A stretch of 64,000 nucleotides of DNA. Origin: Alphaproteobacteria bacterium. Its GTDB lineage: Bacteria; Pseudomonadota; Alphaproteobacteria; MPNO01; UBA830. Shown one piece after another: positions 46,017 to 63,148 of the stretch. The position numbers and the translations under genes were made by a program. Location: positions 1,472,001-1,536,000 of the forward strand of contig OZ251539.1 of the NCBI GenBank assembly GCA_965243135.1, in the 5' to 3' direction. Every line of letters begins with the position of its first letter. Position 1 is the stretch's first letter. Below the pieces are notes generated by a model that did not search any database, was not told the origin of the DNA, and saw nothing but the letters and a program-made list of their open reading frames with translations.

Positions 46017-47240
46017 ATGGTCCGGCCGCTGGAGCATGTCCGCGTACTCGATCTGAGCCGCATCCTCGCCGGGCCGTGGGCGGGGCAGACCTTCGCCGAT
46101 CTCGGCGCGGAGGTCATCAAGATCGAACGGCCGGGCAGGGGAGACGACACGCGAGCTTGGGGGCCTCCCTACGCAGTCAGTCCTGATGGCGGGGAAACGG
46201 GCGAATCGGCTTATTTCCTGTCGGCCAACCGCGGCAAGAAATCGGTGACCGTCGACCTCGGCAAGCCGGAAGGCCAGGAGGTCGTCCGAGCCCTGGCGGA
46301 AACGTCGGACGTGTTGATCGAAAACTACAAGGCTGGCGGCCTGGCGGCGTACGGGCTCGATTACGAGGCGCTACGGCGGGTCAACCCGCGCCTGGTGTAC
46401 TGCTCCATCACGGGATTCGGACAGACCGGCCCGTACAGCGGCCGCGCCGGTTACGATTTCCTCATTCAAGCCATGGGCGGCCTGATGAGCGTCACGGGAG
46501 AGGCGGACGACCGGCCGGGCGGCGGCCCTCAAAAGGTCGGCGTCGCGCTGACGGACATCGTCACCGGGCTGTACACGACCGTCGCCGCGCTTTCGGCGCT
46601 CGCATGGCGCGAGAAGACCGGGCGCGGCCAGCACGTGGACATGGCGCTGCTGGACGCGACGGTCGCCGCGATGGCCAATCAGGCGATGAATTACCTGATC
46701 GGGGGCAGGGCTCCGGAACGGATGGGCAATGCGCATCCGAACGTGGTTCCGTACCAAGCCTACAAAACGGCCGACCACTACGTCATTCTCGCGGTCGGCA
46801 ACGACGAACAGTTCAGGAGGTTCTGCGAAGTCGCGGGCCGTTCGCAGCTGGCGGACGACGAACGCTTCGCGACCAATCGCGCCAGGGTGGTCAACAGGCG
46901 CCTGCTGGGCCCGATTCTCGACGAGGCCATCGGATCCAGGCCGCGCGCCTTCTGGCTGGAAGAGCTCGAGAAGGCGGGCGTTCCCTGCGGGCCGATCAAC
47001 GATCTGGCGCAGACGTTCGGCGACCCGCATGTCCTGGCGCGCGGCATGCGGCGCGAGCTTGAGCATCCGACCGCGATTTCGGTTCCCACGGTGGCGAATC
47101 CGATTCGGTTCTCGGAATCTCCCATCGAATACGACCGCGCGCCGCCGACGCTCGGTCAGCATACGGAGGAAATTCTGTCCGGCTTGCTCGGCAAGGACGC
47201 CTCGGAGATCGAGCGATTGCGGGAAATCGGGGCTATCTGA
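46017..47240 (+). CDS. CaiB/BaiF CoA-transferase (probable succinyl-CoA:glutarate CoA-transferase)
   Basis: VLDLSRILAGPW, NRGKKS, GYDFLIQAMGGLMS; directly downstream of gcdH. Confidence 0.9.
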   Translation: MVRPLEHVRVLDLSRILAGPWAGQTFADLGAEVIKIERPGRGDDTRAWGPPYAVSPDGGETGESAYFLSANRGKKSVTVDLGKPEGQEVVRALAETSDVLIENYKAGGLAAYGLDYEALRRVNPRLVYCSITGFGQTGPYSGRAGYDFLIQAMGGLMSVTGEADDRPGGGPQKVGVALTDIVTGLYTTVAALSALAWREKTGRGQHVDMALLDATVAAMANQAMNYLIGGRAPERMGNAHPNVVPYQAYKTADHYVILAVGNDEQFRRFCEVAGRSQLADDERFATNRARVVNRRLLGPILDEAIGSRPRAFWLEELEKAGVPCGPINDLAQTFGDPHVLARGMRRELEHPTAISVPTVANPIRFSESPIEYDRAPPTLGQHTEEILSGLLGKDASEIERLREIGAI

Positions 47241-47317
47241 ACTGGGTCCGCGAGCCGTCTTGACCGCGCCGCGGCCGTTCGTCATCCTTTGCGCGTCAGC
47301 ATCGGGGACATCGCTTC

Positions 47318-47821
47318 ATGGCGTTGCCTGCGACGGACGAGGCCAAGCGCGAAGCCGGCGCCGCGAAGGACGGCGCGCCGGCTTTCGCGCTCCGCAAGCA
47401 GGTCGGCCATCTGCTGCGCCGGGCGCATCAGCGTCATACGGCGATCTTTCAGGCGATGATCGGCGACGGCCGGGTGACGCCGTTGCAGTTCGCCGTTTTG
47501 ACGACGCTCGCGGACATGGACGAAGCGTCGCAGAATCATCTCGGCCGTCTCACGGCCATGGACGCGGCCACCATGCAGGGCGTGATCAAGCGTCTGCTCG
47601 CTCGCGGGTTGATCAGGCGCCGCGCGGACCCGGGAGACCGGCGGCGCCTGCTGCTCACGTTGTCGGGGGCGGGCGAAGAGTTGGTGGCCGAGGTCACGGA
47701 TCGCGGCCACGCGATCAGCGAACGAACGCTGGAACCGCTGTCGGCCGCCGAACGGAAGACCTTTCTCCGCTTGCTCGGTCGCTTGTCGAGCAGCCCCGCT
47801 TCGAGGCGGCCCGTCGCCTAG
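47318..47821 (+). CDS. MarR family transcriptional regulator (NicR-like)
   Basis: QVGHLLRRAHQRHTAIF, TPLQFA, SQNHLGRLTAMDAATMQGVIKRL, DRRR. Confidence 0.88.
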   Translation: MALPATDEAKREAGAAKDGAPAFALRKQVGHLLRRAHQRHTAIFQAMIGDGRVTPLQFAVLTTLADMDEASQNHLGRLTAMDAATMQGVIKRLLARGLIRRRADPGDRRRLLLTLSGAGEELVAEVTDRGHAISERTLEPLSAAERKTFLRLLGRLSSSPASRRPVA

Positions 47822-49134
47822 TCCGCCCGCTCCAGCGCGGCGATCATCTCGTCCGGGCTGGCGAACTTGCGCCGGGGGGCGCCGGCAGGCGCCGCTTCGA
47901 CTTCCAGCCTGTCGATCTCCTGCCAATCGGAAAAGGAAACGATCCGGACGCCGCGCGCCGCCAGCCGGGCGTCGACCGCGGCCCGCCCGGGCCGCGCGCC
48001 GTCGGGACATTCGGCGAGGAGGCGGTCGACGACTTCGAGCGAATCGTTCTTGTTGGTGCCGATCGTGCCGGTCGCGCCCCGCTTCAGCCAGCCGACCGCG
48101 TACAGGCGGTCGGAAATCCTGCCGTTCTCGTTCGCGACGATTCCGGCGCGGTCGTCGAAGGGAATTCCTTCGATGGGGAAAGCGTGCGATCCGATGCACG
48201 TGACGACGATCTGGCAAGAGACGTCGAAGGTCTCGCCGGTTCCCGACACGCGGCCGTTTTCGTCGACGGCCGTGCGTTCGAGGCGCACGCCTTCGACTCG
48301 CGAGTCTCCGAGAATTTCCTTCGGCGACGCGCAAAAGGCGAAATGGACCCGCTTTTCCTTGTCGGCCGGGTCGACGTCGAGGAAGGAGCGCAGCGTATCG
48401 ACGTTCCTCTGGCGCAGCCTCAGGTCGCGATCGGACATGTAGGGCGCCGCGACCTCGGCCGGCAGCTGCGCCGGATCGACGACGGGGACGGCGTTCCGAA
48501 GCTCTCCCATCTCTCGCAGCTCCACGTTGGTGAACGCCGCTTGCGCGGCTCCGCGGCGCCCGAACATGTAGATGTTCCTTACGGGCGAGGCGTGAAGCGG
48601 GGCCGCGGCATGATCGACCAGATCGGTGACCGACATTTCCTCCCGCGTTTTCGCGAAAACGCGCGCCACGTCGAGCGCCACGTTGCCGATTCCGACAACG
48701 GCGGCCGCTTCGACGTCCAGATCCGGATCGAGTCCGGCGAAGTCCGGATGTCCGTTGAACCATCCGACGAAGGCGTTGGAGCCGAAGACGTTCGGCAGAT
48801 CCTCGCCCGGGATTCCCAGCCTGTTGTCGCGCGGGGCGCCGCAGGCGAGAACCACGGCGTCGTAGGCGTCGAGGAGCTCGGCGACGGAAACGTCGCGGCC
48901 GACCTCGACGTTGCCGAGGTAGCGGAGGCGCTCGTCCTGCATGGTGCGGTCGTACGCGCGGGAGACGCGCTTGGTCTTCTGGTGGTCCGGCGCGACGCCG
49001 CCCCTGATCAGTCCGTAGGGGCTGGGCAGCCTTTCGATCACGTCCACGGCGCAATCGCGCTCCTTGTCGAGCAGACCCTGCGCGGCGTACATGCCGCCGG
49101 GGCCTGACCCGACGATCGCGACGGTGCGAGTCAT
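47818..49134 (-). CDS. Ferredoxin-NADP+ reductase (adrenodoxin reductase/FprA-like)
   Basis: GSGPGG, PYGLIRGGVAPDH, GIGNVALDVAR, GRRG, GWLKRGATGTIGTN. Confidence 0.92.
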   Translation of the reverse strand: MTRTVAIVGSGPGGMYAAQGLLDKERDCAVDVIERLPSPYGLIRGGVAPDHQKTKRVSRAYDRTMQDERLRYLGNVEVGRDVSVAELLDAYDAVVLACGAPRDNRLGIPGEDLPNVFGSNAFVGWFNGHPDFAGLDPDLDVEAAAVVGIGNVALDVARVFAKTREEMSVTDLVDHAAAPLHASPVRNIYMFGRRGAAQAAFTNVELREMGELRNAVPVVDPAQLPAEVAAPYMSDRDLRLRQRNVDTLRSFLDVDPADKEKRVHFAFCASPKEILGDSRVEGVRLERTAVDENGRVSGTGETFDVSCQIVVTCIGSHAFPIEGIPFDDRAGIVANENGRISDRLYAVGWLKRGATGTIGTNKNDSLEVVDRLLAECPDGARPGRAAVDARLAARGVRIVSFSDWQEIDRLEVEAAPAGAPRRKFASPDEMIAALERAD

Positions 49135-49244
49135 TCGAAGAAACCTCTATTCTGGAAAATCGGACTGCGTTGCGGCGCGCGCCGCATAATACCGGGCCGC
49201 GCGGGGCAGGGAAGGGGCGGCGAGGTTTTCGCGCCGCGCACGCC

Positions 49245-50390
49245 TTACCAGAGCGTTTTCGTCGCGATGCGCGCGCCTTCCGCCATCGCTTCGAATTTCG
49301 CCCAGATCACCGTGGGGTGGACTTCGGTGCGATAACACGCTTGCGAGGAAAAACCGCAGTCTCCGCCGGCAAGGACGTTCTCCCGCCCGACCGCCTTCGC
49401 GAAGCGGACGATGCGTTCGGCGATCAGCTCCGGGTGCTCGACGATATTGCTCGCGTGGGTGACGACGCCGGGAATCAGCGCCCGGCCTTCGGGGAGCCGG
49501 ATGTCCTCCCATATCCGGTACTCGTGCTCGTGACGCGCGTTCGCCGCCTCGAAAGAATAGGCTCCCGCCTTGATTCCGAGCATGTATTTCGCGACGTCCG
49601 CCATGGGCGCTTCGTGGACGCGCGGTCCTTCGTTGATGCCGTAGCAGGTGTGGTAGCGGATTTTCTCCGCGGGGATGTTGCGGACGGCGTGATTGGTCGC
49701 TTCCACGTAGACGCTGGCCATGCGGTCCTTCCCGGCGTCGTCGAGTTTCGGGTCGACCAGGGTGTCGCAGAGGAAGGGATCGTCGATCTGCAACAGCAGG
49801 CCGGCCTCGACGATGGCCTCGTATTCTTCCCGCAGCGCCTCCGCGACGGCTTCCGCGTACTCCTCTTCAGTTCCGTAATATTCGTTGAAACCCACTCCTG
49901 CGGGCGCGACCGCAGGCATGAACGCGCCTTCGCACTCGACCTCGGCGAGCGCCGCCTTGAGATTGTCGATATCCCTGTCGAGCGCCGCCCGCCCCTTGTA
50001 GGCCACCGGGCCCACGCAAGCCATGGGATGCACGGGAACCACCGTGCCGCCCATCATCGCCCGCGCGAAATAGTCTTCGTAATACTCCGGGAAAGCGGCG
50101 ATTTCCGCCGCGAAAAGGTCGTGCTTCCGGTCCGGTCGCGGCTCGAACCCGTCGATCCGCTCCTCGATATAGGAGAAGAAGCCCGGCTTCGACATTTCGC
50201 CGTCGGCGACCACGTCGATGCCGGCCTCCGCCTGCCGCCGGACGACGTCGCGAACGCCGTTTCGGATTTCCTTTCGGTAGGCTTCCTCGTCATGGTCCTC
50301 GCCGCTCAGTTTCGCCTTCATCGCGTCGAGAACCGCCGCCGTGCGGGGCAGGCTGCCTACGTGAGTCGTCAGGATGCGACTTCCTTGCAT
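49245..50390 (-). CDS. Cobalamin-independent methionine synthase II family (single-domain MetE-like) protein
   Basis: TTHVGSLPR, DGEM, HTCYG, FEAAN, DCGF Zn-ligand pattern. Confidence 0.88.
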   Translation of the reverse strand: MQGSRILTTHVGSLPRTAAVLDAMKAKLSGEDHDEEAYRKEIRNGVRDVVRRQAEAGIDVVADGEMSKPGFFSYIEERIDGFEPRPDRKHDLFAAEIAAFPEYYEDYFARAMMGGTVVPVHPMACVGPVAYKGRAALDRDIDNLKAALAEVECEGAFMPAVAPAGVGFNEYYGTEEEYAEAVAEALREEYEAIVEAGLLLQIDDPFLCDTLVDPKLDDAGKDRMASVYVEATNHAVRNIPAEKIRYHTCYGINEGPRVHEAPMADVAKYMLGIKAGAYSFEAANARHEHEYRIWEDIRLPEGRALIPGVVTHASNIVEHPELIAERIVRFAKAVGRENVLAGGDCGFSSQACYRTEVHPTVIWAKFEAMAEGARIATKTLW

Positions 50391-50499
50391 GACACTCTCT
50401 CCTTTCCCAGCTCCAGGCCTGCCTCGGTCGACTTCGGAAGACCTTTGCGCTGCTGGCTTCATTAAAGGCGATGCCTGGCCGAGCGGGCAATCCGGTTCC

Positions 50500-52497
50500 C
50501 TATGGCTGCACGGCAGGGCGGGGCTGGCGCAGCCGTTTCAACCTGAACCTGAAGCTTTTGGCCGGACGCGGCGTCGGCACGTTGGTCATCTTCAACTCGT
50601 AGCCGGGCGGATCCAGTTCGAGCTCGGCAGCATGAAAGACGGTCGCAATGACGAGCAGCGTCTGCGTCTCCGCGAAATTTCCGCCGAGGCAGTGGTGGGT
50701 TCCCACGCCGAAAGGGACGAAGACGTTGGGCTGCCGATGCTCGGCGCGCTCCGGCAGGTAGCGGTCGATGTCGAATCGATCCGGATCGGGAAAGAATTCG
50801 GGCAGGCGGTGCGTTACGGAGGTCGCCACGAACAGCGATTTGCCGGCGGGAACGCGGTAGCCGGCGAAGTCGAAGGAATTCGCCGCCTTGCGAAAAATTA
50901 CCGGCGCCGCCGGGTACATGCGCATGGCCTCCAACACCGCGCGATGCGTCACGTCCAGCCGCCGCAGGCTCTCCGCAGATAACGGTTCGGCGAAGAACCG
51001 GTCCGCTTCCGCAACGATTCGCGCCTTCAGATCCGGATGCTTCAGGATTGCGTACAGCGTGAACGCGCAGGTGTTGGCCACGGTCTCGATGCCGACCAGA
51101 TAGGGGCTCAGCACCATGGCGGTCATGTCCGTTTCGGGCATGAATTGCGGATCGGAGCGGTGCAGGTCGATAATGTCGTTGATCAAGTCGCCGGAATCGT
51201 GATGCGGCCCGCCGGGCATGTGGGACTGCAAGCTCTTGCGCGCCAGTTGTTCAATGCGCTCGCGGGCCTTCTTGAACCTACGGGCGAACGGAAACATCGG
51301 CAGTTGCTTCGCGATCGAGGTGACGAGCACCGTTTCAAGGTAGACAACAAGGTCTTCCAGATACTCGGAGGCCGATTCGCCCCCCAGGATCCGGCCCATC
51401 TGGTCGGCGATGATCCGCTGCATCAAGAACAGCGGCTTGATGCGCCGGCCCTCCGGCTGGGCGGCGACATGTTGTCGGCAGACTTCGCTGGCGAGTTCGA
51501 GATGCGCTTGGAACCGCGCGCCGGAAAACGCCGGAGCCATGGCTCTGCGCATGGCGATATGTTCCTTGCCGTCCATATTCAGTACGAGCCTCGAGGCGCC
51601 GAGGCTTTCGGCCAGGCCCCGCCAAGGGTCGTGGGAACTGAGGAAGAACCGTCCTTTGCGGTGGACGAGCCGATTGGCCTCCGCGCCGGCAAGCACGAGA
51701 ATTCTGCGGCGCAGCAGACGAATTTCGAACACCGGGCCGAGTTCGAGGTATTGCTTTGTCAGAAACTCGCGAACGTCCCTGGCCGCTTCCCGAGCGCTGC
51801 CAAGCAACGGCGCTCCCTTGACGAAAGGTATTTCCCTGGCTGGAGGAGAGGCGGGTGCCGCCTCCTCTCGACCGGAATTGCGCACCGCTCGCGTTACGGC
51901 CTGGCCGATCAAGTCCATGCGCCGCACCTGATCGATCCGCTCCCGCACCTCGCCGCGTTCGGCTTTGCTCAGCATTCGCTCGAATAGGCCGCAGGCGTCT
52001 GCGAGGCAGATGACGACGACTTCCCGCGGTCCCGGCATGTCGCCACCGAACAGCACGCCCATGATGCGAAGCCGTACCTCCTGTTCGGCCCGGCCATCCG
52101 CTGTCGGATACCGTCGCGCCCGCGCTACCTTCGGCGACGGCAGCATGGCGCCCTCCTCGACGGATTGCAGAATGCCGGCTTCGACCAGGCGCGCCAGCGC
52201 CGCAGAGCGAATCCGATCGCCGTCCTCGGCGATGCGACGCACCCAGTACTCGGCCTCGTGCGCTTGTTCGCTTTCCGCCACAGACTTCAGGACAGGATCG
52301 AGAAGGTCGTCTCCCACAGGCGCAGGATCGACCAACACGAGCTGTTCGAGATCGGTGTCGATTCGGTTTTCCAGCGCCAAATCCATGAGAACCGCTCCGG
52401 CGAGGGCATGGCGAAGGTCCGCTTCCGGCAAGAACGCCAGAGCGCCCGCGTCCTCGTTCAGCAGCAGCAGCATGATTTCTTCGGCGAAACGCAGCAC
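50500..52497 (-). CDS. Fusion: GOLPH3/Vps74 (GPP34) domain + cytochrome P450
   Basis: aa 1-205: FAEEIMLLLL...LAGAVLMDLALENRI...GDDLLDPVL...ARLVEAGIL...RYP. aa ~225-665: VGIETV I-helix, EAMR (ExxR), FPDPDRFDIDRY, PFGVGTHHCLG heme Cys. GTG start with SD GAGGA. Confidence 0.88.
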   Translation of the reverse strand: MLRFAEEIMLLLLNEDAGALAFLPEADLRHALAGAVLMDLALENRIDTDLEQLVLVDPAPVGDDLLDPVLKSVAESEQAHEAEYWVRRIAEDGDRIRSAALARLVEAGILQSVEEGAMLPSPKVARARRYPTADGRAEQEVRLRIMGVLFGGDMPGPREVVVICLADACGLFERMLSKAERGEVRERIDQVRRMDLIGQAVTRAVRNSGREEAAPASPPAREIPFVKGAPLLGSAREAARDVREFLTKQYLELGPVFEIRLLRRRILVLAGAEANRLVHRKGRFFLSSHDPWRGLAESLGASRLVLNMDGKEHIAMRRAMAPAFSGARFQAHLELASEVCRQHVAAQPEGRRIKPLFLMQRIIADQMGRILGGESASEYLEDLVVYLETVLVTSIAKQLPMFPFARRFKKARERIEQLARKSLQSHMPGGPHHDSGDLINDIIDLHRSDPQFMPETDMTAMVLSPYLVGIETVANTCAFTLYAILKHPDLKARIVAEADRFFAEPLSAESLRRLDVTHRAVLEAMRMYPAAPVIFRKAANSFDFAGYRVPAGKSLFVATSVTHRLPEFFPDPDRFDIDRYLPERAEHRQPNVFVPFGVGTHHCLGGNFAETQTLLVIATVFHAAELELDPPGYELKMTNVPTPRPAKSFRFRLKRLRQPRPAVQP

Positions 52498-52533
52498 TGT
52501 CCGTTCCTCAGGCGCCGGCGTGGGCTGTCGATT

Positions 52534-53676
52534 TCATGCGCTGGCCCGCGGAGGTTCGTAACCCCATGCGTCGACCGCGAACCCCCAGCGTTCGGTCACC
52601 CGGTCGATGTCCGCCTGACTCATCGTGAAGCGGTTCTTGCGGTAACCCGACAACGTTCGGAGATATAGTTCCACTTGCGGGCGGCAGACGCGCCAGTCCG
52701 GCAGGTCGAGTTCTGCGTACAAGCGCTCCAACTCGCCAAGAGGATCGCGCTCAAGATCCTCGTAGCGCACCTCCGCGAGCCGCCCGCGGAGGACGCCTTC
52801 CCGGTCGCGCAGAAATTTGGTCATCGTCCGCCGGTACGCCTCGACGAGAAACCGTTCCATCTCGCGCCAGTCGTAATGGTCGAGCTGGTACAAGGGAAGC
52901 AAGGTCCGGTAAAGATGCAGCAGCGATGGATAAACGGTGTACGGATTACGAACGATGTGGATGAACTTTCCCTTTGGAAAAAGGCGCAACAGATGGTCGG
53001 CGCGCGCCATGTTCACGGTGTTGCGGAACACCATGGGCTTGCCGTTCGCGAGCAGCGACGCCTTGCGAACGACGCCCAGATACGTGCGCTCCCAATGAGA
53101 CAGTTCCCTCGACGACAGGCCGCCGTCGACCGTGTCGCCCAACAGGACATATTTGTTCAACCATCGCATGGAGTGCTGGGGAAAGGAAAGCTGGTGAATG
53201 AAGGACATGCGCGATTCGTTGGCGACTGCCAGATCTTCCTCCTGGGGGGCGTCCATGGATATTTTCACATTGTCCATCGGCCGCGTTTGTTCCTTTCCTT
53301 CGCCCGCTTTCGCCATGCCTTTTTCGAAGAGTCGCTTCAGCCAGTCATGCCCGATCAGGGCGAACGTCGACGTCACTCCCTGATAGGTGCTGAAGTAGCC
53401 GAAGCGGGCGTCTTGCGTGATCAGATTTTGCAGATGCGTGGTGCCCGAACGCCCGAAACCCAAAATGAACAACGGAGGCGGATCCAAGACGACCTTGTTT
53501 ACCCGCCTGGAATACGCCAAGCTCTCGGCGATGCGCAGCGGCGAAGCCAGCGCCGACATGGCCAGGATGCCCGCGGCTCTGCCCCAGTATGGCCGGGCGA
53601 TCCCGCGGTTCTCTATGATGAGCTGCGCCCATACGGATAACGGTGCGAAACTGCAGGGATGAAAGTCGTTCCTCAT
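52534..53676 (-). CDS. PAPS-dependent sulfotransferase (Stf3-like)
   Basis: PLFILGFGRSGTTHL (5'-PSB), RPMDN..S..APQEE, FIHIVRNPY...S (3'-PB), VRYEDL. Confidence 0.9.
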   Translation of the reverse strand: MRNDFHPCSFAPLSVWAQLIIENRGIARPYWGRAAGILAMSALASPLRIAESLAYSRRVNKVVLDPPPLFILGFGRSGTTHLQNLITQDARFGYFSTYQGVTSTFALIGHDWLKRLFEKGMAKAGEGKEQTRPMDNVKISMDAPQEEDLAVANESRMSFIHQLSFPQHSMRWLNKYVLLGDTVDGGLSSRELSHWERTYLGVVRKASLLANGKPMVFRNTVNMARADHLLRLFPKGKFIHIVRNPYTVYPSLLHLYRTLLPLYQLDHYDWREMERFLVEAYRRTMTKFLRDREGVLRGRLAEVRYEDLERDPLGELERLYAELDLPDWRVCRPQVELYLRTLSGYRKNRFTMSQADIDRVTERWGFAVDAWGYEPPRASA

Positions 53677-54001
53677 TTTCTGCCGATCCGTTGGGAACAG
53701 GAATGGAAGGTATCACGCGCCCGCGACAGACAGCAACTCCCGCCGCCGCCCGTCCCGCTCGGCCGACCCGACAGGCTTCGTCGGGAGCGGGGCAGGGTTT
53801 CCCCGGCCTCGGGACTCTGCGATTTCGTCGTGCGCCCGGTCGTGAGCGTGACTCGGGCTGCGGAAACGAATGTTGCGCGGCGGCGCATTGTCGGGAGAAC
53901 GCTTTCCGTGAACGGAATCGCTCCGACCTCGCGCGTTTGAGCGTTTCCGTCGACGGATGGCGCGGGAGTCTGACGCTGGAAGGCGGAGCGCCGGGGCCGG
54001 A

Positions 54002-55258
54002 ATGAACGCCGGACTGTGGACTCGGACCGCCGGGCGGGCGCTCGGCCTTCCGCCGCTTGCCGGGGACGTTTCCGCCGATATCGTCGTCGTTGGCGGCGGA
54101 TATACCGGTTGTTCGGCAGCCTTGCATCTGGCGGAAGCGGGCGCAGAGGTCCGCCTGCTGGAAGCGAAAACGGTCGGACATGGCGGATCGGGGCGCAACG
54201 TCGGTCTCGTCAACGCGGGACTGTGGGTGTCCCCCGAGGGCGTCGAGAAGAGGTTGGGAATGGCGGCGGCCGGAAAGCTAAACCGGGCGCTGGCCGCGGG
54301 ACCCGACCTCGTGTTCGAACTTATCCGAAGACACGGGATCGCTTGCGAAGCCGTGCGAAACGGCACGCTGCATTGCGCGCACGCACCTTCCGGACTTCGG
54401 ACGCTGAAGGAGCGGCTGCGCCAACTGAGGAAAGACGACGCGCCCGCGGAGCTGCTGACGAAGGAAGAAACGCGAATCCGGACAGGCGCTGCCGGGTTTC
54501 ACGGCGCGTTGCTCGACCGCCGGGCGGGAACCATCCAGCCTCTTGCCTATGTGCGGGGCCTGGCGCGCGCCGCAGTCTCGGCCGGCGCGAAACTGCACGA
54601 AAACACTCCCGTATCGGAGTGCCGCCGCGTCGGCGGCAACTGGCGCGTGCGGACGCAGGGTTGCGCGGTGACCGCCCGAACCCTGATCCGCGCGACCAAC
54701 GCCTATCCGCAACCTATCGCGGGGCTTGCGGCGACCGAATTCATCCCTCTCGACTATTTTCAGTTCGCGACGCCGCCGCTGCGCGAGGAACTATTGGCAT
54801 CCGTACTTCCCGGCGGGGAGGGCTGCTGGGACACGGGACGCGTGATGACGTCTTTTCGCCGCGACGCGGAAGGCCGGCTGATCATCGGCGGGATGGGAAC
54901 AATGGACGGCGTCGGAGGCGCGGCGCACCGCGGATGGGCTCGCTGCAAGCTCGCCCGGTTGTACCCGGCGGCGGCGGGCGTCGCTTTCGACCACGCATGG
55001 TCGGGGCGCATCGCTGTCTCGGGCGATCGCCTGCCTCGCGTCGAGGACATCGGGACGGATGCGATCGCCGTTCACGGCTATTCGGGACGCGGCATTGCGC
55101 CGGGAACGGCGTTCGGCAGGGCTGCGGCCGAGTGGGCGCGCACGGGCGACGAGGATGCGCTTCCTGTCGCGCCGGGGCCTCCGCGACGAGAGGGTTTTCG
55201 GCGGCTCAAGGCGCTCGGCTACGAGACGGCGGCGATCCTGTTTCACTTGGCTCGGTGA
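54002..55258 (+). CDS. FAD-dependent oxidoreductase (DAO/PuuB-like)
   Basis: GGGYTG, GSGRNVG, IQPLAY, GYSGRGIAPG; start could be 53957. Confidence 0.88.
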   Translation: MNAGLWTRTAGRALGLPPLAGDVSADIVVVGGGYTGCSAALHLAEAGAEVRLLEAKTVGHGGSGRNVGLVNAGLWVSPEGVEKRLGMAAAGKLNRALAAGPDLVFELIRRHGIACEAVRNGTLHCAHAPSGLRTLKERLRQLRKDDAPAELLTKEETRIRTGAAGFHGALLDRRAGTIQPLAYVRGLARAAVSAGAKLHENTPVSECRRVGGNWRVRTQGCAVTARTLIRATNAYPQPIAGLAATEFIPLDYFQFATPPLREELLASVLPGGEGCWDTGRVMTSFRRDAEGRLIIGGMGTMDGVGGAAHRGWARCKLARLYPAAAGVAFDHAWSGRIAVSGDRLPRVEDIGTDAIAVHGYSGRGIAPGTAFGRAAAEWARTGDEDALPVAPGPPRREGFRRLKALGYETAAILFHLAR

Positions 55259-55893: not shown

Positions 55894-56928
55894 TCAGGCC
55901 CCGGCGCTCACCGTCCAGGTTCGGCCCTTGCGGAGCATGTCGTTGAGCGTGCCGGTCGCCGCGCTCTTCTCGATTTCGGCGAGTTGTTCGTGCACCGCCT
56001 CGTCGTATGGCTTCGCAGGATCGCAGTAGAGCACCCCGAGGGCCACCGGATATTCCGGCTGTTGCATGTCGGCCAGCATCGTGGCCAGCATCTTGTTGGT
56101 CTGGTCGTGGACGAGGATGTCGTCGGCCGTCGCGCCGTCGTCTCCGATTTTGACGATCTCGATGCCGAACCCGTCGGCGCGGCGGGCGATGCCCCGGTCG
56201 CGCTCCTTCCCGAAAATCAGCGGTTGTCCGTGCTCGACGGAGATCGCGTTGTCGGCTACCGCGGACTTGTCGGTCCAGCTGGCGAAGGCGCCGTCGTTGT
56301 AGACGATGCAATTCTGCACGATTTCGACGAAGGACGCGCCCTTGTGCGCGTGCGCGGCCTTGAGCACGCCCGGCATGTGCTTCTGGTTGGTGTCGAAGGT
56401 GCGCGCCACGAATCGCGCGCCGGCCCCGAGCGCGAAGCTGCAGGCGTTGACCGGCGAATCGACGGACCCCTGCGGCGTCGAAGGCGATCGGGTGCCAAGC
56501 TTGCTGGTCGGCGAGTACTGACCCTTGGTGAGGCCGTAAATCTCGTTGTTGAACAGCAGCATGTTGATGTCGACGTTGCGGCGCAGCGCGTGAAGCGTGT
56601 GATTGCCGCCGATCGACAGCGCGTCGCCGTCGCCCATCACGAGCCATATGTCGAGTTCCGGATTGGCCAGCTTGGCGCCCGTGGCGAACGCCGGAGCGCG
56701 GCCGTGAATGGTGTGGAAGCCGTAAGAGGCCATGTAATAAGGAAATCGGGCGGCGCAGCCGATGCCGGAGAAGAAGACCAGATTCTCCAGCGGAATCTGC
56801 AGCTCCGCAAGCGTCCGGTGAACGCCCTTGACGATGGCGTAATCGCCGCAGCCCGGGCACCAGCGGACTTCCTGATCGGAAGCGTAATCGGCCGGCTTGA
56901 GTCGTTCGGCGGGGGTTTCGACGTTCAT
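55894..56928 (-). CDS. korB: 2-oxoacid:ferredoxin oxidoreductase beta subunit
   Basis: WCPGCGD, SGIGC, HTIHGRA, GDGD...NN TPP motif, YGLTKGQYSPT. Confidence 0.95.
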   Translation of the reverse strand: MNVETPAERLKPADYASDQEVRWCPGCGDYAIVKGVHRTLAELQIPLENLVFFSGIGCAARFPYYMASYGFHTIHGRAPAFATGAKLANPELDIWLVMGDGDALSIGGNHTLHALRRNVDINMLLFNNEIYGLTKGQYSPTSKLGTRSPSTPQGSVDSPVNACSFALGAGARFVARTFDTNQKHMPGVLKAAHAHKGASFVEIVQNCIVYNDGAFASWTDKSAVADNAISVEHGQPLIFGKERDRGIARRADGFGIEIVKIGDDGATADDILVHDQTNKMLATMLADMQQPEYPVALGVLYCDPAKPYDEAVHEQLAEIEKSAATGTLNDMLRKGRTWTVSAGA

Positions 56929-56932
56929 CGGA

Positions 56933-58801
56933 CTAATCCTCTATGCGCGAACGGATTTCACGTTCAAGAGTGGAGACCTTGAAGGGCTGGCCGGAAATCT
57001 GGGTGACGCTTTCGGCGTCGACCAGATACTTGCCGCGCAGCACGTGAACCAGCTGCCCGTTGTTCATCTCCGGCACGACGATCCTGTCGAACCGCGACAG
57101 GAGTTCGTCGAGATTGGCGGGCAGCGGCCATATGTGGCGGATGTGGATATGCGAAGCGCTCAACCCGTCGGCTCGGCAACGCTGCACGGCCTGGTTGATG
57201 GCCCCGTAGGTCGAACCCCAGCCGACGACGGCGAGCTTGCCGCGGTCGTCGCCGCTCGCTACCTCCTGCGGCGGGATATCGTCGGCGATGCCGTCGATCT
57301 TGGCGGCGCGCACCTTGGTCATCTTGTGGTGGTTGGCCGAATCGTAGGAAATATGGCCGGTATCGTAGTCCTTTTCGATGCCGCCGATCCGGTGCATCAT
57401 TCCCGGCGTGCCCGGAATCGCCCAATTGCGCGCGAGAGTCTTCTCGTCGCGCAAATATGGATGAAAGCCCTCCGGATCGGCGCGGAACGAGACCTTGAAC
57501 TCGGGAATCCGGTCGATGTCGGGGATTTCCCAAGGTTCGGCGGCGTTCGCGAGATAGCCGTCGGTGAGAAGAATGACCGGCGTCATGTACTTGACGGCGA
57601 GCCGCACCGCCTCGATCGCTGTCTCGAAGCAATCTCCCGCGGTCGCGGAGGCGACGACGGGAAGCGGCGTGTCGGCATTGCGGCCGAAAACGGACTGGTT
57701 GAGATCGGATTGCTCCGTCTTGGTCGGGAGGCCTGTGGACGGGCCGCCGCGCTGGCTGTTGACCACCACGAGCGGCAGTTCCGCGACAAGGGCGAGGCCG
57801 ATCGCTTCGGTCTTGAGCGCCACGCCCGGCCCCGACGACGACGTGACGCCGATCGCTCCGGCGTAGGATGCGCCGATCGCCGAGCAAACGGCGGCGATCT
57901 CGTCCTCCGCCTGGAAGGTCGTGACCCCGTATTGCTTGAGGTTGGTAAGCGTATGCAGCAGCGCCGACGCCGGCGTGATCGGGTAGGAGCCGAGAAAGAG
58001 CTTGAGCCCGGCCTTGTGGGCGCCCGTGACCAGCCCCCAGGCGATCGCCTCCGTGCCGGTCACCGCACGGTAGGTGCCGGGCCGGACCTCGGCCCTGGGC
58101 ACCATGTAGGCTTCCGCTCCGGAAGGCAGTTCGACCGTCTCTCCATAGGCATGGCCGGCGTTGAGCGCAGCGATGTTGGCCGCCGCGATGTTGGGCGACT
58201 TGCCGAATCTGTGCTTCACCCAATCGACGGTTGGCTGCCGGTCGCGGTCGTATATCCAGCACATAAGGCCAAGCGCCCAGAAGTTCTTCGCGCGCGTCGC
58301 TTCCTTGGCCGACACGCCGCAATCGGCGACCGCGGCGTTGGTCAACTTGTTCATCTCGACCGCAATCACGGCGTAGTTGTCGAGGGTGCCGTCTTCCAGC
58401 GGATTCTCGCCGTACCCGGCACGCGCGACGTTGCGGGCCGTGAAGGCGTCCGTGTTGACGATGATCGTGCCGCCCTTGGGCACGTCCCTGAGATGCACCT
58501 TGAGCGCCGCCGGGTTCATGGCGACGAGGACGTCGGGTTCGTCGCCGGGAGTCTGGATATCGTAGGACGCGAAATTGATCTGAAACGCAGAGACGCCGAA
58601 GGTCGTTCCGGCCGGCGCCCGGATCTCCGCCGGAAAATCGGGAAAGGTCGCGAGATCGTTCCCCATCAACGCGGTCGACTGCGTAAACTGAGTGCCCGTC
58701 AGCTGCATTCCGTCGCCGGAATCGCCGGCGAAGCGGATGACGACCGAATCCAGCGCCTTGCGATCACTCTCCGGGGCGGCTTCCGCGATGTTTGTGGCCA
58801 T
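56933..58801 (-). CDS. korA: 2-oxoacid:ferredoxin oxidoreductase alpha (gamma-alpha) subunit
   Basis: FAGDSGDG, PAEIR, YPITPAS, QAEDEIAA, QRGGPSTGLPTK, EMNNGQL; start ATG 58801. Confidence 0.95.
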   Translation of the reverse strand: MATNIAEAAPESDRKALDSVVIRFAGDSGDGMQLTGTQFTQSTALMGNDLATFPDFPAEIRAPAGTTFGVSAFQINFASYDIQTPGDEPDVLVAMNPAALKVHLRDVPKGGTIIVNTDAFTARNVARAGYGENPLEDGTLDNYAVIAVEMNKLTNAAVADCGVSAKEATRAKNFWALGLMCWIYDRDRQPTVDWVKHRFGKSPNIAAANIAALNAGHAYGETVELPSGAEAYMVPRAEVRPGTYRAVTGTEAIAWGLVTGAHKAGLKLFLGSYPITPASALLHTLTNLKQYGVTTFQAEDEIAAVCSAIGASYAGAIGVTSSSGPGVALKTEAIGLALVAELPLVVVNSQRGGPSTGLPTKTEQSDLNQSVFGRNADTPLPVVASATAGDCFETAIEAVRLAVKYMTPVILLTDGYLANAAEPWEIPDIDRIPEFKVSFRADPEGFHPYLRDEKTLARNWAIPGTPGMMHRIGGIEKDYDTGHISYDSANHHKMTKVRAAKIDGIADDIPPQEVASGDDRGKLAVVGWGSTYGAINQAVQRCRADGLSASHIHIRHIWPLPANLDELLSRFDRIVVPEMNNGQLVHVLRGKYLVDAESVTQISGQPFKVSTLEREIRSRIED

Positions 58802-59501
58802 GTTTTTTCTGTCCGAATTCTGGTGAGCCGGGAGGCTAGGGAGGCGCGCCGCGCCCGTCAAGTTTCGCCCGGACCGAACCGAGCTGTCGCGAAACATATA
58901 ACACGGCGGGCGAATCTTGCGAAAAACCTGCATTTCCGCGGGAGGCTTGCGCCGATCGACCGTCGGGCAAAGGCCGGCTGCGGGAAGACCGCCAACATCC
59001 CGGTCGCTTTCTGCAGGCGGGCGGGTTCTTCGGCGGATCTTCGCGGCGACGGGGTCCGAACGTCGGTGCCTCCCTCCCTCGGCGCGGTGCGTTCGATCAG
59101 CGCCTTCAGCGACGCCGTTCGTGGCGGCGTCCGGCCTCGTCCCGCCGCGCCGTCCGCTCGGCTTCTGCGCGATATCGCTGGGCTTCCAACTGGGCCGCCT
59201 CGTGCCTGCGCTGCGCTTGGGCGCGATCCCGAGTGCGGTTGAAATAGAACATAAGCGAAAGGCCGGCAGCGATCGGTCCGCACTGAATGCAGCCGATCAG
59301 ATTCGACGTTTCGCCCTGGGCCAGACTTGCCTTATGGAGAGCGAGGGTCGCGTTCCGGAACGTTGCAGCTTCGAATTCCGTCATGGCGAGCGGCTTCTCG
59401 AACCTTTCGCAGGAGACGCGCATCTTAGCGGAAGCGACTCGCCGATGTCCATATTGCGGGGCGCGCGCCGGCTTTGTCGGTTGCCGACCGCTCCTCGCCG
59501 C

Positions 59502-59543
59502 TTGACTTGAGCGGAAAGGCCGCATTGTATGCATGCGAACGAT
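59502..59543 (+). promoter_or_regulatory. Putative promoter with overlapping palindromic operator for the Mo-hydroxylase operon
   Basis: TTGACT-N17-TTGTAT; imperfect palindrome ATTGTATGCATGCGAACGAT (59524-59543, 14/20 positions symmetric). Confidence 0.5.
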
Positions 59544-59558
59544 CTGGATCGGGCGGCA

Positions 59559-60419
59559 ATGTCATCCTACCTGAGACCCGAGAGTCTCGACGAGGCGTTG
59601 CGGGCGCTGGCCGACGGCGGCTACGCGATAATCGCCGGCGGGACCGACTTCTACCCGGCCAGGGTGGGCCGCGCGATTCGAGAAGACGTGCTGGACGTCA
59701 CCGCGATTCCGAACTTGCGGGGCATCGAGGATTGCGGAGATAGTTACCGCATCGGCGCGCTGACGACCTGGAGCGACGTGCTTCGCGCCGATTTGCCGGA
59801 CTGGTTCCGAGCGCTCCGGCTCGCGGCCCGTGAAGTCGGCGGAGTTCAGGTGCAGAATGCCGGAACGATCGTCGGCAACATATGCAACGCTTCGCCCGCC
59901 GCCGACGGCGCGCCGTGCCTGATGGCCATGGACGCGGCGGTCGAGCTTGCCTCGATCTCCGGCGAACGCGAGGTGCCGGTCGCCGGATTCGTTGCGGGCA
60001 ACCGGAAGACGGTTCGAAAGCCAGACGAAATGGTGATCGCCCTGCGCGTTCCGAAAGCCCGGCCTCGCGCTTCGAGCGTATTTCTGAAACTCGGCGCGCG
60101 CAGGTATCTGGTAATTTCGATCGTCATGGCGGCGGCCGTCCTGGAAACGGCTTCCGACGGCACCGTCGATCGGATGCGCATTGCAGTGGGCTCCTGTTCG
60201 GAGACCGCATGCCGGCTGCCGGATCTGGAGTCGGCTCTCGCGGGCCGGCCCGTCGACGCGGCGCTTGCCGACCGCGTCGCGACGGATTCGCTCGCGCCGC
60301 TGGCGCCGATCGACGACATGCGCGGCACCGCCGCGTACAGGATGGAGGCCGCGCTGACCATGGTGCGCCGCGCCGTCTCCGAGCTCGGAGGGCATGCATG
60401 CCAATCTCTTTCACGCTGA
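59559..60419 (+). CDS. Molybdenum hydroxylase FAD subunit (nicotinate dehydrogenase NdhF-like)
   Basis: AGGTD, VGGVQVQNAGTIVGNICNASPAAD, KLGARRYLVISI, PIDDMRGTAAYR. Confidence 0.92.
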   Translation: MSSYLRPESLDEALRALADGGYAIIAGGTDFYPARVGRAIREDVLDVTAIPNLRGIEDCGDSYRIGALTTWSDVLRADLPDWFRALRLAAREVGGVQVQNAGTIVGNICNASPAADGAPCLMAMDAAVELASISGEREVPVAGFVAGNRKTVRKPDEMVIALRVPKARPRASSVFLKLGARRYLVISIVMAAAVLETASDGTVDRMRIAVGSCSETACRLPDLESALAGRPVDAALADRVATDSLAPLAPIDDMRGTAAYRMEAALTMVRRAVSELGGHACQSLSR

Positions 60420-63148
60420 ACGGCGGCGCGGTTTCCGTCGAGTCCTCGCCGATCGTTCGGCTGGCCGAGGCGCTTCGCGGCGAACTGGGGCTGACCGGCA
60501 CGAAGGTGGGATGCGACGCGGGCGACTGCGGAGCCTGCACGGTGCTCGTCGACGGAGAGCAGTTCTGCTCCTGCATGGTTCCCGTCGCTCAGGTGGAGGG
60601 ACGCGAGGTCACCACCGTGGAAGGACTAGCGGCCAGGGACGGGCGCTTGTCGGCTATCCAGGAGGCGTTTCACCGCAACGGAGCGGCGCAGTGCGGCATT
60701 TGCACGCCCGGCATGCTGATGTCGGCGGCGGCGCTGCTCCGCAGCAATCCGCGGCCCGGAGAAGACGAGGTTCTCGACGCGATGGGCGGCGTGCTGTGCC
60801 GGTGCACGGGCTACCGCAAGATCGTCGACGCGGTGATGGACGCGGTCGCGCCGACGGATTCCGGGGGCGTCGAGCCCGAGGCGGGCGAGGCGATGGGCGC
60901 GCGCGCGCTCAAGACCGACGGAGTGCGCAAGGTCGACGGCAGCGAAATGTACGGCGCCGACCTGGCGCCGGAAGATGCGCTCTGGGTGCGAGTGGTGCGG
61001 TCGCCCCATGCCAGCGCGACCTTTTCGCTGGGTTCGCTGAAAGCTTTGCATGCCGCCCATCCCGGTCTCGTCAGGGTTCTTACCGCCGCCGACGTGCCCG
61101 GCAACAACGGCTTCGGCGTTTACCCGACGGTCAAGGACCAGCCTGCGTTCGCCGACGGCGAAGTGCGGTTTCGGGGGGAAGCGGTGGCGGCGTTGGTCGG
61201 AGACTACGCGACCGTCTTCGGCATTCGGGACGAGGAGGTGCCGATCGAGTACGCCGCGCGCGACCCGGTGCACGGCATCGACGCCGCCCTGGCCCCGGAC
61301 GCGCCTCGAATTCACGACGGCTATCCCGGCAACGTCTTCGCGCGCGGCCTGGTCCGAAAGGGCGACGCCGAGGCGGCTCTGGCGTCGGCCGACGTCGTCG
61401 TCGAGGACAGTTTCGAAACCGGTTTCGTCGAACACGCCTATATCGAGCCCGAGGCGGGATGGGCGCGTCGCGTCGGCGACCGTCTGGAGATAACCGTTAC
61501 GACCCAATCCCCGTACATGGATCGCGACGAGATGGCGCAGATCATCGGCATTCCGCCGGAGAGCGTGCGCATCGTTCCCACCGCCTGCGGCGGCGGTTTC
61601 GGCGGCAAGCTCGATCTCGGCGTGCAGATTCCGGTCGGCCTCGCGGCGTGGCTGCTCGACCGGCCGGTGCGCGGCGTCTGGAACCGCCCGGAATCGATGG
61701 CGGCGACGACCAAGCGCCACCCGTCGCGCATCACCGGACGCTACGGCTGCACGCGCGACGGCGACCTCGTCGCCTACCGGATGACCGGGGACTTCGACAC
61801 CGGCGCCTACGTCTCCTGGGGGATGACGGTGAAGGACCGGGTTCCGGTCCACGCGACGGGGCCTTATTTCGTGCCGCATGTCGACGCGAGGTCCCGCGCG
61901 GTCTTCACGAACGGCGCGCCCGCCGGGGCGTTCCGCGGCTTCGGCGTTCCGCAGGCGGCGATCGCCCACGAGGCGCTGATGGACGCGATGGCCGAAAAGA
62001 TCGGCATGGATCCTCTGGAGTTCAGGTTGCGCAACGCCATTCGAAAGGGCCAGCGTACCGCGACCGGGCAAGCGCTCGAACACAGCGCGGGGCTCGACCA
62101 GTGCCTCGAAGCCTTGCGCGATCGGTGGCGGTCGGCGCGAGCGGCCGCCGAGAAGTTCAACGCCGGAAGCGACGGCGTCCGGCGCCGGGGCGCGGGCGTC
62201 GGGTGCATGTGGTACGGCTGCGGCAATACCTCGATGAGCAATCCTTCGACCATGCAGATGGGAGTGGCGCCGGACGGAACGGTGACGCTCTACTCGGGCG
62301 CCCAGGACATCGGCCAGGGCACCAACACGACGATGGTGCAGGTGGCGGCCGACGCGCTCGGGATTCGCATGAGCGCGATACGGCTCGTCTGGGGAGACAC
62401 CGACCTGACCGCCGACGCGGGCAAGAGTTCGGCGTCCCGTCAGGCTTACGTGTCGGGCAAGGCGGCGATGCTCGCGGGCGAAAGCCTGAGGGCTCAGATC
62501 CTGCGGCTCGCCAACGTCGGCGAAGGCGCCTCGTTCGAATTCGAGTCCGGTTCGCTGATCGTTCGCGACGGCGACGCCGCGCGCGTCATCGATCTTTCCG
62601 CGATGCCCGCCGACAAGCCGCGCGGCAACGTGCTGTTCGGCGAGGCGACGTTCGACCCCCCGACCACGCCGCTCGACGAGATGGGGCAGGGGAGCCCCTA
62701 CGGCACGTACGCTTTCGGGGCGCAGGTGGCGGAGGTGGAGGTCGACACGGAACTCGGGACGGTCAAGGCGCTTCGCGCGTGGGCGGCCCACGACGTGGGC
62801 GCCGCCATCAACCCGATGCAGGTGGAGGGGCAAATCCACGGAGGAGTCGCCCAGGGGCTTGGCTTCGCCCTCATGGAGGAATACGTCCCCGGGCGCACCG
62901 AGAACCTGCACGATTACCTGATCCCGACGGTCGGGGACGTGCCTCCCATCGAGGTGTTGACGATCGAGGATCGCGAACCGACCGGGCCCTACGGGGCCAA
63001 GGGCATCGGGGAACCGGCGCTCATTCCCACGGCGCCGGCGATCTTCGGCGCGATCCGCCACGCGACGGGGGCGCGAATCAAACGCGCGCCTGCGACGCCC
63101 GACCGCGTCCGCTCCGCCATTCTGGCGGCCGGAGGGGAAAGGCCGTGA
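60398..63148 (+). CDS. Fused [2Fe-2S] + molybdopterin subunit, probable nicotinate dehydrogenase
   Basis: GCDAGDCGACT, QCGICTPG, LCRCTGY, then GGGFGGK, GAFRGFGVPQ, GQIHGG, GAKGIGE; followed by an hnr-like gene. Confidence 0.85.
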   Translation: MPISFTLNGGAVSVESSPIVRLAEALRGELGLTGTKVGCDAGDCGACTVLVDGEQFCSCMVPVAQVEGREVTTVEGLAARDGRLSAIQEAFHRNGAAQCGICTPGMLMSAAALLRSNPRPGEDEVLDAMGGVLCRCTGYRKIVDAVMDAVAPTDSGGVEPEAGEAMGARALKTDGVRKVDGSEMYGADLAPEDALWVRVVRSPHASATFSLGSLKALHAAHPGLVRVLTAADVPGNNGFGVYPTVKDQPAFADGEVRFRGEAVAALVGDYATVFGIRDEEVPIEYAARDPVHGIDAALAPDAPRIHDGYPGNVFARGLVRKGDAEAALASADVVVEDSFETGFVEHAYIEPEAGWARRVGDRLEITVTTQSPYMDRDEMAQIIGIPPESVRIVPTACGGGFGGKLDLGVQIPVGLAAWLLDRPVRGVWNRPESMAATTKRHPSRITGRYGCTRDGDLVAYRMTGDFDTGAYVSWGMTVKDRVPVHATGPYFVPHVDARSRAVFTNGAPAGAFRGFGVPQAAIAHEALMDAMAEKIGMDPLEFRLRNAIRKGQRTATGQALEHSAGLDQCLEALRDRWRSARAAAEKFNAGSDGVRRRGAGVGCMWYGCGNTSMSNPSTMQMGVAPDGTVTLYSGAQDIGQGTNTTMVQVAADALGIRMSAIRLVWGDTDLTADAGKSSASRQAYVSGKAAMLAGESLRAQILRLANVGEGASFEFESGSLIVRDGDAARVIDLSAMPADKPRGNVLFGEATFDPPTTPLDEMGQGSPYGTYAFGAQVAEVEVDTELGTVKALRAWAAHDVGAAINPMQVEGQIHGGVAQGLGFALMEEYVPGRTENLHDYLIPTVGDVPPIEVLTIEDREPTGPYGAKGIGEPALIPTAPAIFGAIRHATGARIKRAPATPDRVRSAILAAGGERP

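Follow-up and report, generated by a model that had tools for sequence, protein, structure and literature searches.

A PAPS-type sulfotransferase paired with a GPP34-cytochrome P450 fusion: a conserved bacterial gene pair with a probable role in hydroxylation and sulfation of a lipophilic molecule

A gene for a sulfotransferase of the 3′-phosphoadenosine 5′-phosphosulfate (PAPS) type was found next to a gene for a fusion of a GPP34 (GOLPH3-like) domain with a cytochrome P450 in the genome of an Alphaproteobacteria bacterium (GenBank assembly GCA_965243135.1). The stretch of DNA analysed, referred to below as the window, comprises 64,000 nucleotides (contig OZ251539.1, positions 1,472,001 to 1,536,000). 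The pairing is conserved at related loci across bacterial phyla, and in sister subclades of the fusion the sulfotransferase is replaced by other transferases that modify hydroxyl groups. On balance, the P450 probably hydroxylates a lipophilic molecule, which then undergoes PAPS-dependent O-sulfation. The fusion was already known; the conserved pairing with a transferase, and its implications, were not found in print.

Results

The sulfotransferase-fusion pair recurs across phyla

One genome per prokaryotic species was scanned with the fusion, which gave 537 relatives. The best 80 (loci L003-L082), from metagenome-assembled genomes (MAGs) labelled as more than 10 phyla, were used for neighbour counts by means of hidden Markov models built from the neighbours, with a Pfam check on representatives. 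A sulfotransferase gene was present on the same strand within 400 bp of the fusion gene in 32 of the 80 loci, upstream in 17 and downstream in 15. Within 4 kb the count was 35, or 36 when the divergent PF13469 gene of L070 is included. Co-occurrence of the two genes in other genomes, a check proposed in a preliminary description of this DNA, was thus borne out across phyla and in both gene orders.

A quick maximum-likelihood (ML) tree of 81 fusion proteins required 14 changes of partner label; the mean for shuffled labels was 34.3, and none of 200 shuffles gave so low a count. Partner type follows P450 subclade. The window's fusion fell in a well-supported clade of 10 proteins, all of them linked to a sulfotransferase, from records labelled Alphaproteobacteria, Pseudomonadales, Longimicrobiales, Bryobacterales, Latescibacterota and Binatia. 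Sequence distances of the sulfotransferase and the P450 were correlated (Spearman 0.66 for 35 gene pairs, a value reached in 0 of 999 permutations). When five genomes were searched whole, all six intact genes of the sulfotransferase subclade abutted a GPP34 start, and a seventh, decayed copy lay beside a decayed GPP34. Functional linkage of sulfotransferase and fusion is supported by the adjacency across phyla in both gene orders and by the correlated distances.

A second copy of the module was observed in genome G044 (G044:C3:137489-139168). Both of its genes are broken by stop codons and frameshifts and have decayed together.

The sulfotransferase is replaced by other transferases in sister subclades

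An integral-membrane O-acyltransferase gene (Acyl_transf_3) was directly downstream of the fusion gene in 30 of the 80 loci and nearby in 3 more. A sulfotransferase or an acyltransferase was beside the fusion in 68 loci, and only L017 had both. An EcKL/APH kinase gene adjoined the fusion in L059 and in genome G001, an ICMT-family methyltransferase and a halogenase-like flavoprotein were its neighbours in L077, and a KshA-like Rieske oxygenase was its neighbour in L027. A scan of 110 further same-strand neighbour proteins revealed nothing else recurrent (PhyH, 4; amidohydrolase, 3). A hydroxyl group is the acceptor in the transfer of sulfate, acyl and phosphate alike. The logic of hydroxylation followed by conjugation, suggested in the preliminary description, fits the family because the sulfotransferase is replaced in sister subclades by other hydroxyl-modifying transferases.

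As a separate observation, a sulfatase gene neighbours the fusion in L042.

The fusion architecture is published and widespread

A word-indexed search with the fusion gave 619 relatives. Among the 120 clusters listed, 119 had the GPP34+P450 architecture, down to 42% identity; the exception, P0065 (484 aa), had GPP34 only. The only source name among these clusters was "cytochrome P450". The module is distributed patchily in the window's genus, where no close orthologue turned up; the fusions of other species were 35-41% identical, and the window's module had no flanking genes in common with its closest relatives.

The same architecture was named GPP34_L by Ferreira et al. (Microbiome 2025;13:4; PMC11706023), who reported it only from sponge symbionts, of many phyla including Proteobacteria, and counted GPP34+P450 in 656 of 663 long forms. 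They proposed that GPP34 proteins are secreted effectors that bind phosphatidylinositol 4-phosphate (PI4P) and block phagosome maturation. The terms sulfotransferase, acyltransferase, sulfat- and sterol are absent from the main text of that paper; its supplements (Fig. S11 and tables) may list flanking genes. Literature searches on GPP34, sponge symbionts, sterol sulfate and hopanoids did not find the sulfotransferase-fusion pairing in print. The preliminary description, which knew of no account of this system in Alphaproteobacteria, was therefore only partly right, since the fusion had been published.

Two variants of the family were also seen. An unfused P450 paralogue is present in genome G003 (L091); no GPP34, sulfotransferase or acyltransferase lay beside it in the 4.3 kb examined. 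In L098 (G036:C17:200000-213000), a frameshift has split the GPP34-P450 into two overlapping frames; integrase and transposase genes are present, and a fragment of a squalene-hopene cyclase lies upstream.

The sulfotransferase has an intact PAPS-binding layout and only distant relatives of solved structure

The protein matched Pfam PF13469 (Sulfotransfer_3) over residues 68-328 (118.2 bits, cut-off 27, E 8e-34). It has three N-terminal helices (13-60), the loop GFGRSGTT (73-80), RPMDN (132-136), PQEE (144-147) and R243...S251. We take GFGRSGTT to be the 5′-phosphosulfate-binding loop and R243...S251 to be the 3′-phosphate-binding motif. G73, R76, G78, T80, R243 and P245 were invariant in 44 relatives, and S251 was present in at least 90%. 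The motifs named in the preliminary description, which included an N-terminal W16..L19..N23, were all present and conserved across these relatives.

The AlphaFold2 (AF2) model of the sulfotransferase had a mean predicted local distance difference test score (pLDDT) of 92.5. Foldseek ranked Stf9 of Mycobacterium avium first (2z6v; template modelling (TM) score 0.67/0.65, 19% identity) and Stf1 of M. tuberculosis second (2zq5; 0.58/0.60, 16% identity), and phmmer gave E 1.1e-7 and 0.03 for the same two structures. The protein had been called Stf3-like; this holds only for the broad Stf fold, at 16-19% identity to the solved Stf proteins. The sulfotransferase had 1271 homologues, of which the best 120 comprised 119 without a name and one "hypothetical protein". 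NCBIfam has no family for it, and the ESM Atlas returned only generic sulfotransferase and P450 clusters.

An adenosine 5′-phosphosulfate (APS) kinase domain for PAPS supply is encoded in the same genome (G000:C1:1200624-1201070, in a 619-aa frame, E 1.3e-65). At L005 (4843-7817), cysD-like and cysN/cysC genes for PAPS synthesis lie directly upstream of a fusion-sulfotransferase pair 71% identical to that of the window.

The P450 domain is a clan-level relative of lipid-binding P450s

The P450 domain matched PF00067 with 180.8 bits (cut-off 22.8), so that, together with PF13469 and PF05719 (see below), all three families for which a HMMER check had been suggested were matched above cut-off. 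Its motifs are intact: heme loop FGVGTHHCLG (596-605, with Cys603), ExxR (523-526), PDRF (572-575, PERF-type) and I-helix G469-x-E471-T472, in which E471-T472 forms the acid-alcohol pair. They were conserved in 80 homologues, with C603, E523, R526, T472 and F575 invariant.

By sequence and fold, the nearest structures were the Methylococcus CYP51-ferredoxin fusion, CYP184A1 (oleic-acid complex), CYP204A3, CYP120A1 and CYP170A1, at 23-26% identity and TM-scores of ~0.82-0.85 (normalised to target length). These structures bind sterol, fatty acid or retinoid. The best 60 of 442 PDB matches were mostly CYP51, with CYP184A1 (7wzl), CYP120, CYP170, CYP102-type (BM3-like) and eukaryotic P450s among them. 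An assignment to CYP51, sterol 14-alpha-demethylase, was rejected: identity to bacterial, human and protist CYP51 structures was only 20-26%. The conventional threshold for a P450 family is ~40% identity. By sequence comparison, the domain is not a CYP51; it is related to lipid-binding, eukaryote-like P450s at the level of the clan. NCBIfam P450 equivalogs matched only far below threshold.

The GPP34 domain has lost most PI4P-binding residues

The GPP34 domain matched PF05719 over residues 5-206 (137.9 bits, cut-off 29.1, E 5.8e-40) and is strongly conserved through all fusion subclades. A profile of 28 GPP34 domains matched GOLPH3 (3kn1/9qpq) weakly (E 2e-8). GOLPH3 is a genuine PI4P effector that binds the lipid through W81, R90, R171 and R174, and its R90L mutation abolishes binding, according to the accounts in PMC13408441 and PMC3596250. 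In the alignment, W81 corresponds to L23 (variable), R90 to A33 (Ala in at least 90% of 80 sequences), R171 to D94 (variable or acidic) and R174 to R97 (Arg in the majority). Only one of the four PI4P-binding residues, R97, is thus kept in the fusion.

The fusion opens with the conserved beginning of the GPP34 fold, and its N-terminus lacks a hydrophobic, signal-like segment. The AF2 model of the whole fusion (pLDDT 90.3, predicted TM score 0.85) suggests that the GPP34 and P450 domains pack together rigidly. Targeting of the P450 to a membrane by the GPP34 domain, as the preliminary description envisaged, may be its function.

The window's genome also has a second, stand-alone GPP34 gene (G000:C1:5790455-5791057, a 246-aa frame, 47% identical to the fused domain). 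A link of this gene to a P450 was considered and rejected, as no P450 is encoded close to it; the adjoining genes specify PEPCK, a STAS-domain protein and acyl-CoA synthetases.

Some fusion loci contain cyclase genes

In L079, a cyclase of the squalene-hopene cyclase (SHC) family with the motif DCDDTA is encoded between the fusion and the sulfotransferase, and the sister loci L051 and L056 carry cyclase remnants. L097 (G001:C7), from a species of the window's genus, contains genes for an SE-family FAD monooxygenase, a major facilitator superfamily (MFS) transporter, GPP34-P450, an EcKL/APH kinase and, in convergent orientation, an SHC-type cyclase (DIDDTA). The G001 fusion belongs to a different subclade from the window's. 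We presume that DxDDTA in the L079 and G001 cyclases marks the squalene-hopene type. The alternative that these neighbouring cyclases are oxidosqualene (sterol) cyclases was rejected, as both carry DxDDTA. The leading candidate for the substrate class, proposed tentatively, is a membrane lipid of the polycyclic triterpenoid or isoprenoid type, similar to hopanoids or sterols.

Local context of the gene pair in the window

The features of the region are listed in Table 1. The sulfotransferase gene lies upstream of the co-oriented fusion gene, and the coordinates, strand and lengths of the two genes and their spacing agreed exactly with the preliminary description. The ribosome-binding site in the spacer is ~7 nt before the GTG of the fusion.

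Table 1. Position of the gene pair, its domains and the adjoining genes in the window
Feature	Position	Strand	Remarks
PAPS-type sulfotransferase gene (Sulfotransfer_3)	52534..53676	-	380 aa, ATG start; Pfam, motifs, AF2 model
Spacer, sulfotransferase stop to fusion GTG start	52498..52533	-	36 bp, contains GAGGA ribosome-binding site
GPP34-cytochrome P450 fusion gene	50500..52497	-	665 aa, GTG start; published GPP34_L architecture
GPP34 (GOLPH3-like) domain of fusion, residues 5-206	51880..52485	-	Pfam 5.8e-40
Cytochrome P450 domain of fusion, residues 228-632	50602..51816	-	Pfam 5.4e-53
Heme-ligand Cys603 codon of P450 domain	50689-50691	-	
MetE-like (Meth_synt_2) gene	49245..50462	-	37 bp downstream of fusion
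FAD/NAD(P) oxidoreductase (Pyr_redox_2) gene	47818..49134	-	110 bp beyond MetE-like gene

GC content at third codon positions of both genes was 0.76-0.77, a little under the 0.79-0.86 of flanking genes, and GC content of the region dropped to 0.625-0.633. Codon bias and hundreds of full-length homologues show that the two are real genes and not chance open reading frames. A scan of 47000-54500 gave 7 terminator-like sites, where chance would give 7.4, and none resembling a promoter.

A DAO-family oxidoreductase gene lies upstream of the pair in divergent orientation. Homologues of the MetE-like, Pyr_redox_2, DAO, UbiD and CoA-transferase genes were each found next to the fusion in 0 of the 80 related loci, and homologues of the acyl-CoA dehydrogenase neighbour in 0 or 1. 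The MetE-like, Pyr_redox_2, DAO, CoA-transferase and UbiD neighbours were consequently rejected as members of the module. Because local neighbours do not recur at related loci, the conserved unit is the sulfotransferase plus the fusion. The MetE-like and Pyr_redox_2 genes may be co-transcribed with the fusion here, and the Pyr_redox_2 protein, which is not conserved, could serve as a local redox partner for the P450.

Elsewhere in the window, a two-subunit 2-oxoacid:ferredoxin oxidoreductase is encoded at 55894-58933 (minus strand), and a molybdopterin-dehydrogenase FAD-binding subunit followed by a long open reading frame at 59529-63148 (plus strand).

Discussion

A proposed hydroxylation and sulfation route

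The gene anatomy, the conserved pairing, the exchange of the partner for other transferases, the structural affinities and a PAPS supply are documented above; which reaction comes first, what the substrate is and what GPP34 does are inferred. The P450 domain, using generic cellular ferredoxin and reductase, would insert a hydroxyl group into a hydrophobic substrate, and the adjacent PAPS-dependent sulfotransferase would turn the new hydroxyl into a sulfate ester. GPP34 would be a fixed accessory domain, probably for docking the enzyme on a membrane or for handling the lipid; a role as a secreted, PI4P-binding effector is improbable. A triterpenoid substrate would be taken from the host or from co-resident microbes.

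A more general reading of the family is possible, and we offer it as speculation. GPP34-P450 fusions would be the oxidase half of horizontally spreading lipid-tailoring cassettes and not host-manipulating effectors. Polycyclic triterpenoids would be hydroxylated and then capped by sulfate, acyl or phosphate, with GPP34 replacing the membrane anchor of eukaryotic P450s and presenting the lipid to the active site. In some hosts the substrates would come from the sponge or from neighbours, and the cassettes might be a bacterial source of the sulfated or acylated polycyclic lipids of sponges.

Several observations weigh against the proposed route. Some concern the pairing: the 80 loci were the closest of the 537, with near-duplicate genomes among them, and are therefore less independent than their number suggests, and 12 of the 80, among them L027, L059 and L077, had neither a sulfotransferase nor an acyltransferase. 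In the wider sulfotransferase family (L099-L178, 80 metagenome loci of relatives at 22-50% identity), the fusion was present only in L099 and a P450-like gene only in L164, and in 22 of these loci the sulfotransferase relative stood beside members of one blast cluster, two checked representatives of which were short-chain dehydrogenases/reductases (SDRs). Others concern the enzyme: no redox partner gene was conserved in the module among the 80 loci, and no hydrophobic segment of transmembrane grade was found in the sulfotransferase or the fusion, so that a membrane location is at most putative. Others concern the substrate. Cyclase adjacency is rare, with one intact gene and two remnants in 80 loci in addition to G001 and the fragment in G036. 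No SHC-family match was found in the window's genome (98.8% completeness) or in G042 and G043, which also bear the module, and different fusion subclades may act on different substrates.

An endogenous hopanoid was excluded as the substrate in the window's genome by the lack of an SHC-family match. Lacking a squalene-hopene-type cyclase of its own, this bacterium would need an outside source of any triterpenoid substrate.

The sulfotransferase relatives with SDRs (28-42% identity) look like a separate oxidoreductase-sulfotransferase module. An unannotated protein of ~500 aa recurred in 11 of the L099-L178 loci, and TetR, O-methyltransferase or CysN genes were sometimes present. A P450 link for the whole sulfotransferase family was rejected, with the fusion in 1 of 80 metagenome loci. 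Because only this one locus of a distant relative has the fusion, the pairing is confined to one subclade: it is a property of one branch of a wider sulfotransferase family that tends to adjoin an oxidoreductase.

Alternative explanations

The alternative that survives best, unlikely as it is, is detoxification: the P450 and sulfotransferase would perform phase I and phase II reactions on foreign lipophilic compounds (secondary metabolites of the host or of neighbours), and the conjugate would be pumped out, with no dedicated endogenous lipid. The free swapping of partner enzymes between subclades suits this explanation, as does the lack of a cyclase in the window's genome that could make a triterpenoid substrate. 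The patchy distribution in the genus, without flanking genes shared with the closest relatives, is as expected of an accessory, horizontally moved trait. Exporter genes of the resistance-nodulation-division (AcrB-type) and ATP-binding cassette classes recur near the fusion in some loci, and the MFS transporter adjoins it in G001; however, the 110 proteins scanned from same-strand gene chains included only 2 ACR_tran, so exporters are infrequent there. The strong conservation of GPP34 across subclades suggests a common, specific handling step, and cyclase and SE-family genes are embedded in some clusters, both of which argue against a general detoxification role.

The published effector model, in which a secreted GPP34 protein binds host PI4P and blocks phagosome maturation and the P450 and sulfotransferase are incidental, is improbable for this fusion. 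It draws on the restriction of the fusion to sponge symbionts and on the mechanism proposed for GPP34 proteins, both as reported in PMC11706023, and on the fact that GOLPH3 itself binds PI4P as a genuine effector. However, three of the four binding residues are not conserved, and the key R90 position is almost invariantly Ala. The N-terminus lacks a signal-like segment, an observation that does not address non-classical secretion. The P450 requires heme and cytoplasmic electron donors, and the partner enzymes need cytoplasmic PAPS or are inner-membrane acyltransferases.

Sulfation of a quinone, as in M. tuberculosis, is also very doubtful. The P450 would hydroxylate the prenyl tail and the sulfotransferase would make a sulfo-quinone, so that the pair would do the same job as Cyp128/Stf3. 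Both systems place these two enzyme classes side by side, the nearest structures of the sulfotransferase are the mycobacterial Stf9 and Stf1, and quinones, as far as is known, occur in all phyla that bear the fusion. However, identity to Stf1 and Stf9 is only 16-19%, and no quinone biosynthesis gene recurs beside the module in the neighbours scanned. For the sulfomenaquinone pathway of M. tuberculosis, the order of hydroxylation by Cyp128 and then sulfation by Stf3 is documented in PMC7404182, where the nearest structural templates of CYP128A1 are given as CYP107-type (3VRM, 1Z8P, 3A4G and 5GNM, ~33% identity). None of these templates, through which CYP128A1 was compared here, was among the best 60 of 442 PDB matches of the window's P450. 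The published restriction of the fusion to sponge symbionts (PMC11706023) would also be odd for a universal quinone substrate.

That sulfotransferase and fusion are neighbours without functional coupling, a reading already disfavoured, is hardly credible: the wider sulfotransferase family is mostly without a P450, but adjacency in the subclade persists through gene-order flips and across phyla, sequence distances are correlated, both genes decayed together in G044, and 6 of 6 intact subclade genes in five genomes abut the fusion.

Implications

GPP34-P450 fusions are one of few gene families reported to be specific to sponge symbionts (PMC11706023). If they are enzymes with a swappable transferase, as proposed here, the published effector model for the long form would need revision. 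A concrete biochemical assay would become possible with two genes, PAPS and a lipid extract, and the fusions would offer a candidate microbial origin for sulfated polycyclic lipids of sponge holobionts.

Comparison with known systems

The window's fusion is identical in architecture to GPP34_L, with an N-terminal GPP34 and a C-terminal cytochrome P450 in ~660 aa. Family members are found in MAGs of many phyla, and the record of L048, "SB0661_bin_34", bears the name of a MAG in the legend of Fig. 5 of PMC11706023. The transferase pairing, the lost PI4P pocket and the affinity to the CYP51 clan come from the present analysis and not from the account in that paper.

With eukaryotic GOLPH3/Vps74 the fusion shares the Pfam family and the helical fold of its GPP34 domain. 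As described in PMC13408441, GOLPH3 acts as an adaptor at the membrane periphery and binds client transferases as well. In the window, by contrast, GPP34 is covalently joined to an enzyme, and three of the four PI4P-contact residues are not conserved.

The best matches of the P450 domain were the Methylococcus capsulatus CYP51-ferredoxin (7jj1, 7snm, 6mcw) and CYP184A1 (7wzl/7wzm), at E 3e-40. These are likewise lipid-binding, eukaryote-like bacterial P450s and are also known as fusion proteins. In comparison with these proteins, the window's P450 is 25-26% identical, has an ordinary I-helix E-T pair and is fused to GPP34 rather than to a redox partner.

The system most similar in logic is Cyp128-Stf3. 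In both, a P450 and a PAPS sulfotransferase with the mycobacterial Stf-type fold are adjacent, and the reaction logic, hydroxylation followed by O-sulfation of a membrane isoprenoid lipid, would be shared. In contrast to CYP128, which is CYP107-like, the window's P450 is CYP51/CYP184/CYP120-like and carries a GPP34 domain, and its sulfotransferase is only 16-19% identical to the solved mycobacterial Stf proteins. As the P450 is probably not a CYP128, convergence is the best reading of the resemblance at the level of sequence. The preliminary description had anticipated this, in that the P450 looked to be of the long PERF type rather than CYP128 and the pairing might be convergent, with a different substrate; the absence of the CYP128A1 templates from the best 60 of 442 PDB matches leans the same way. 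If the proposed route is correct, the P450-plus-sulfotransferase logic of sulfomenaquinone would have evolved a second time, independently, in this pair.

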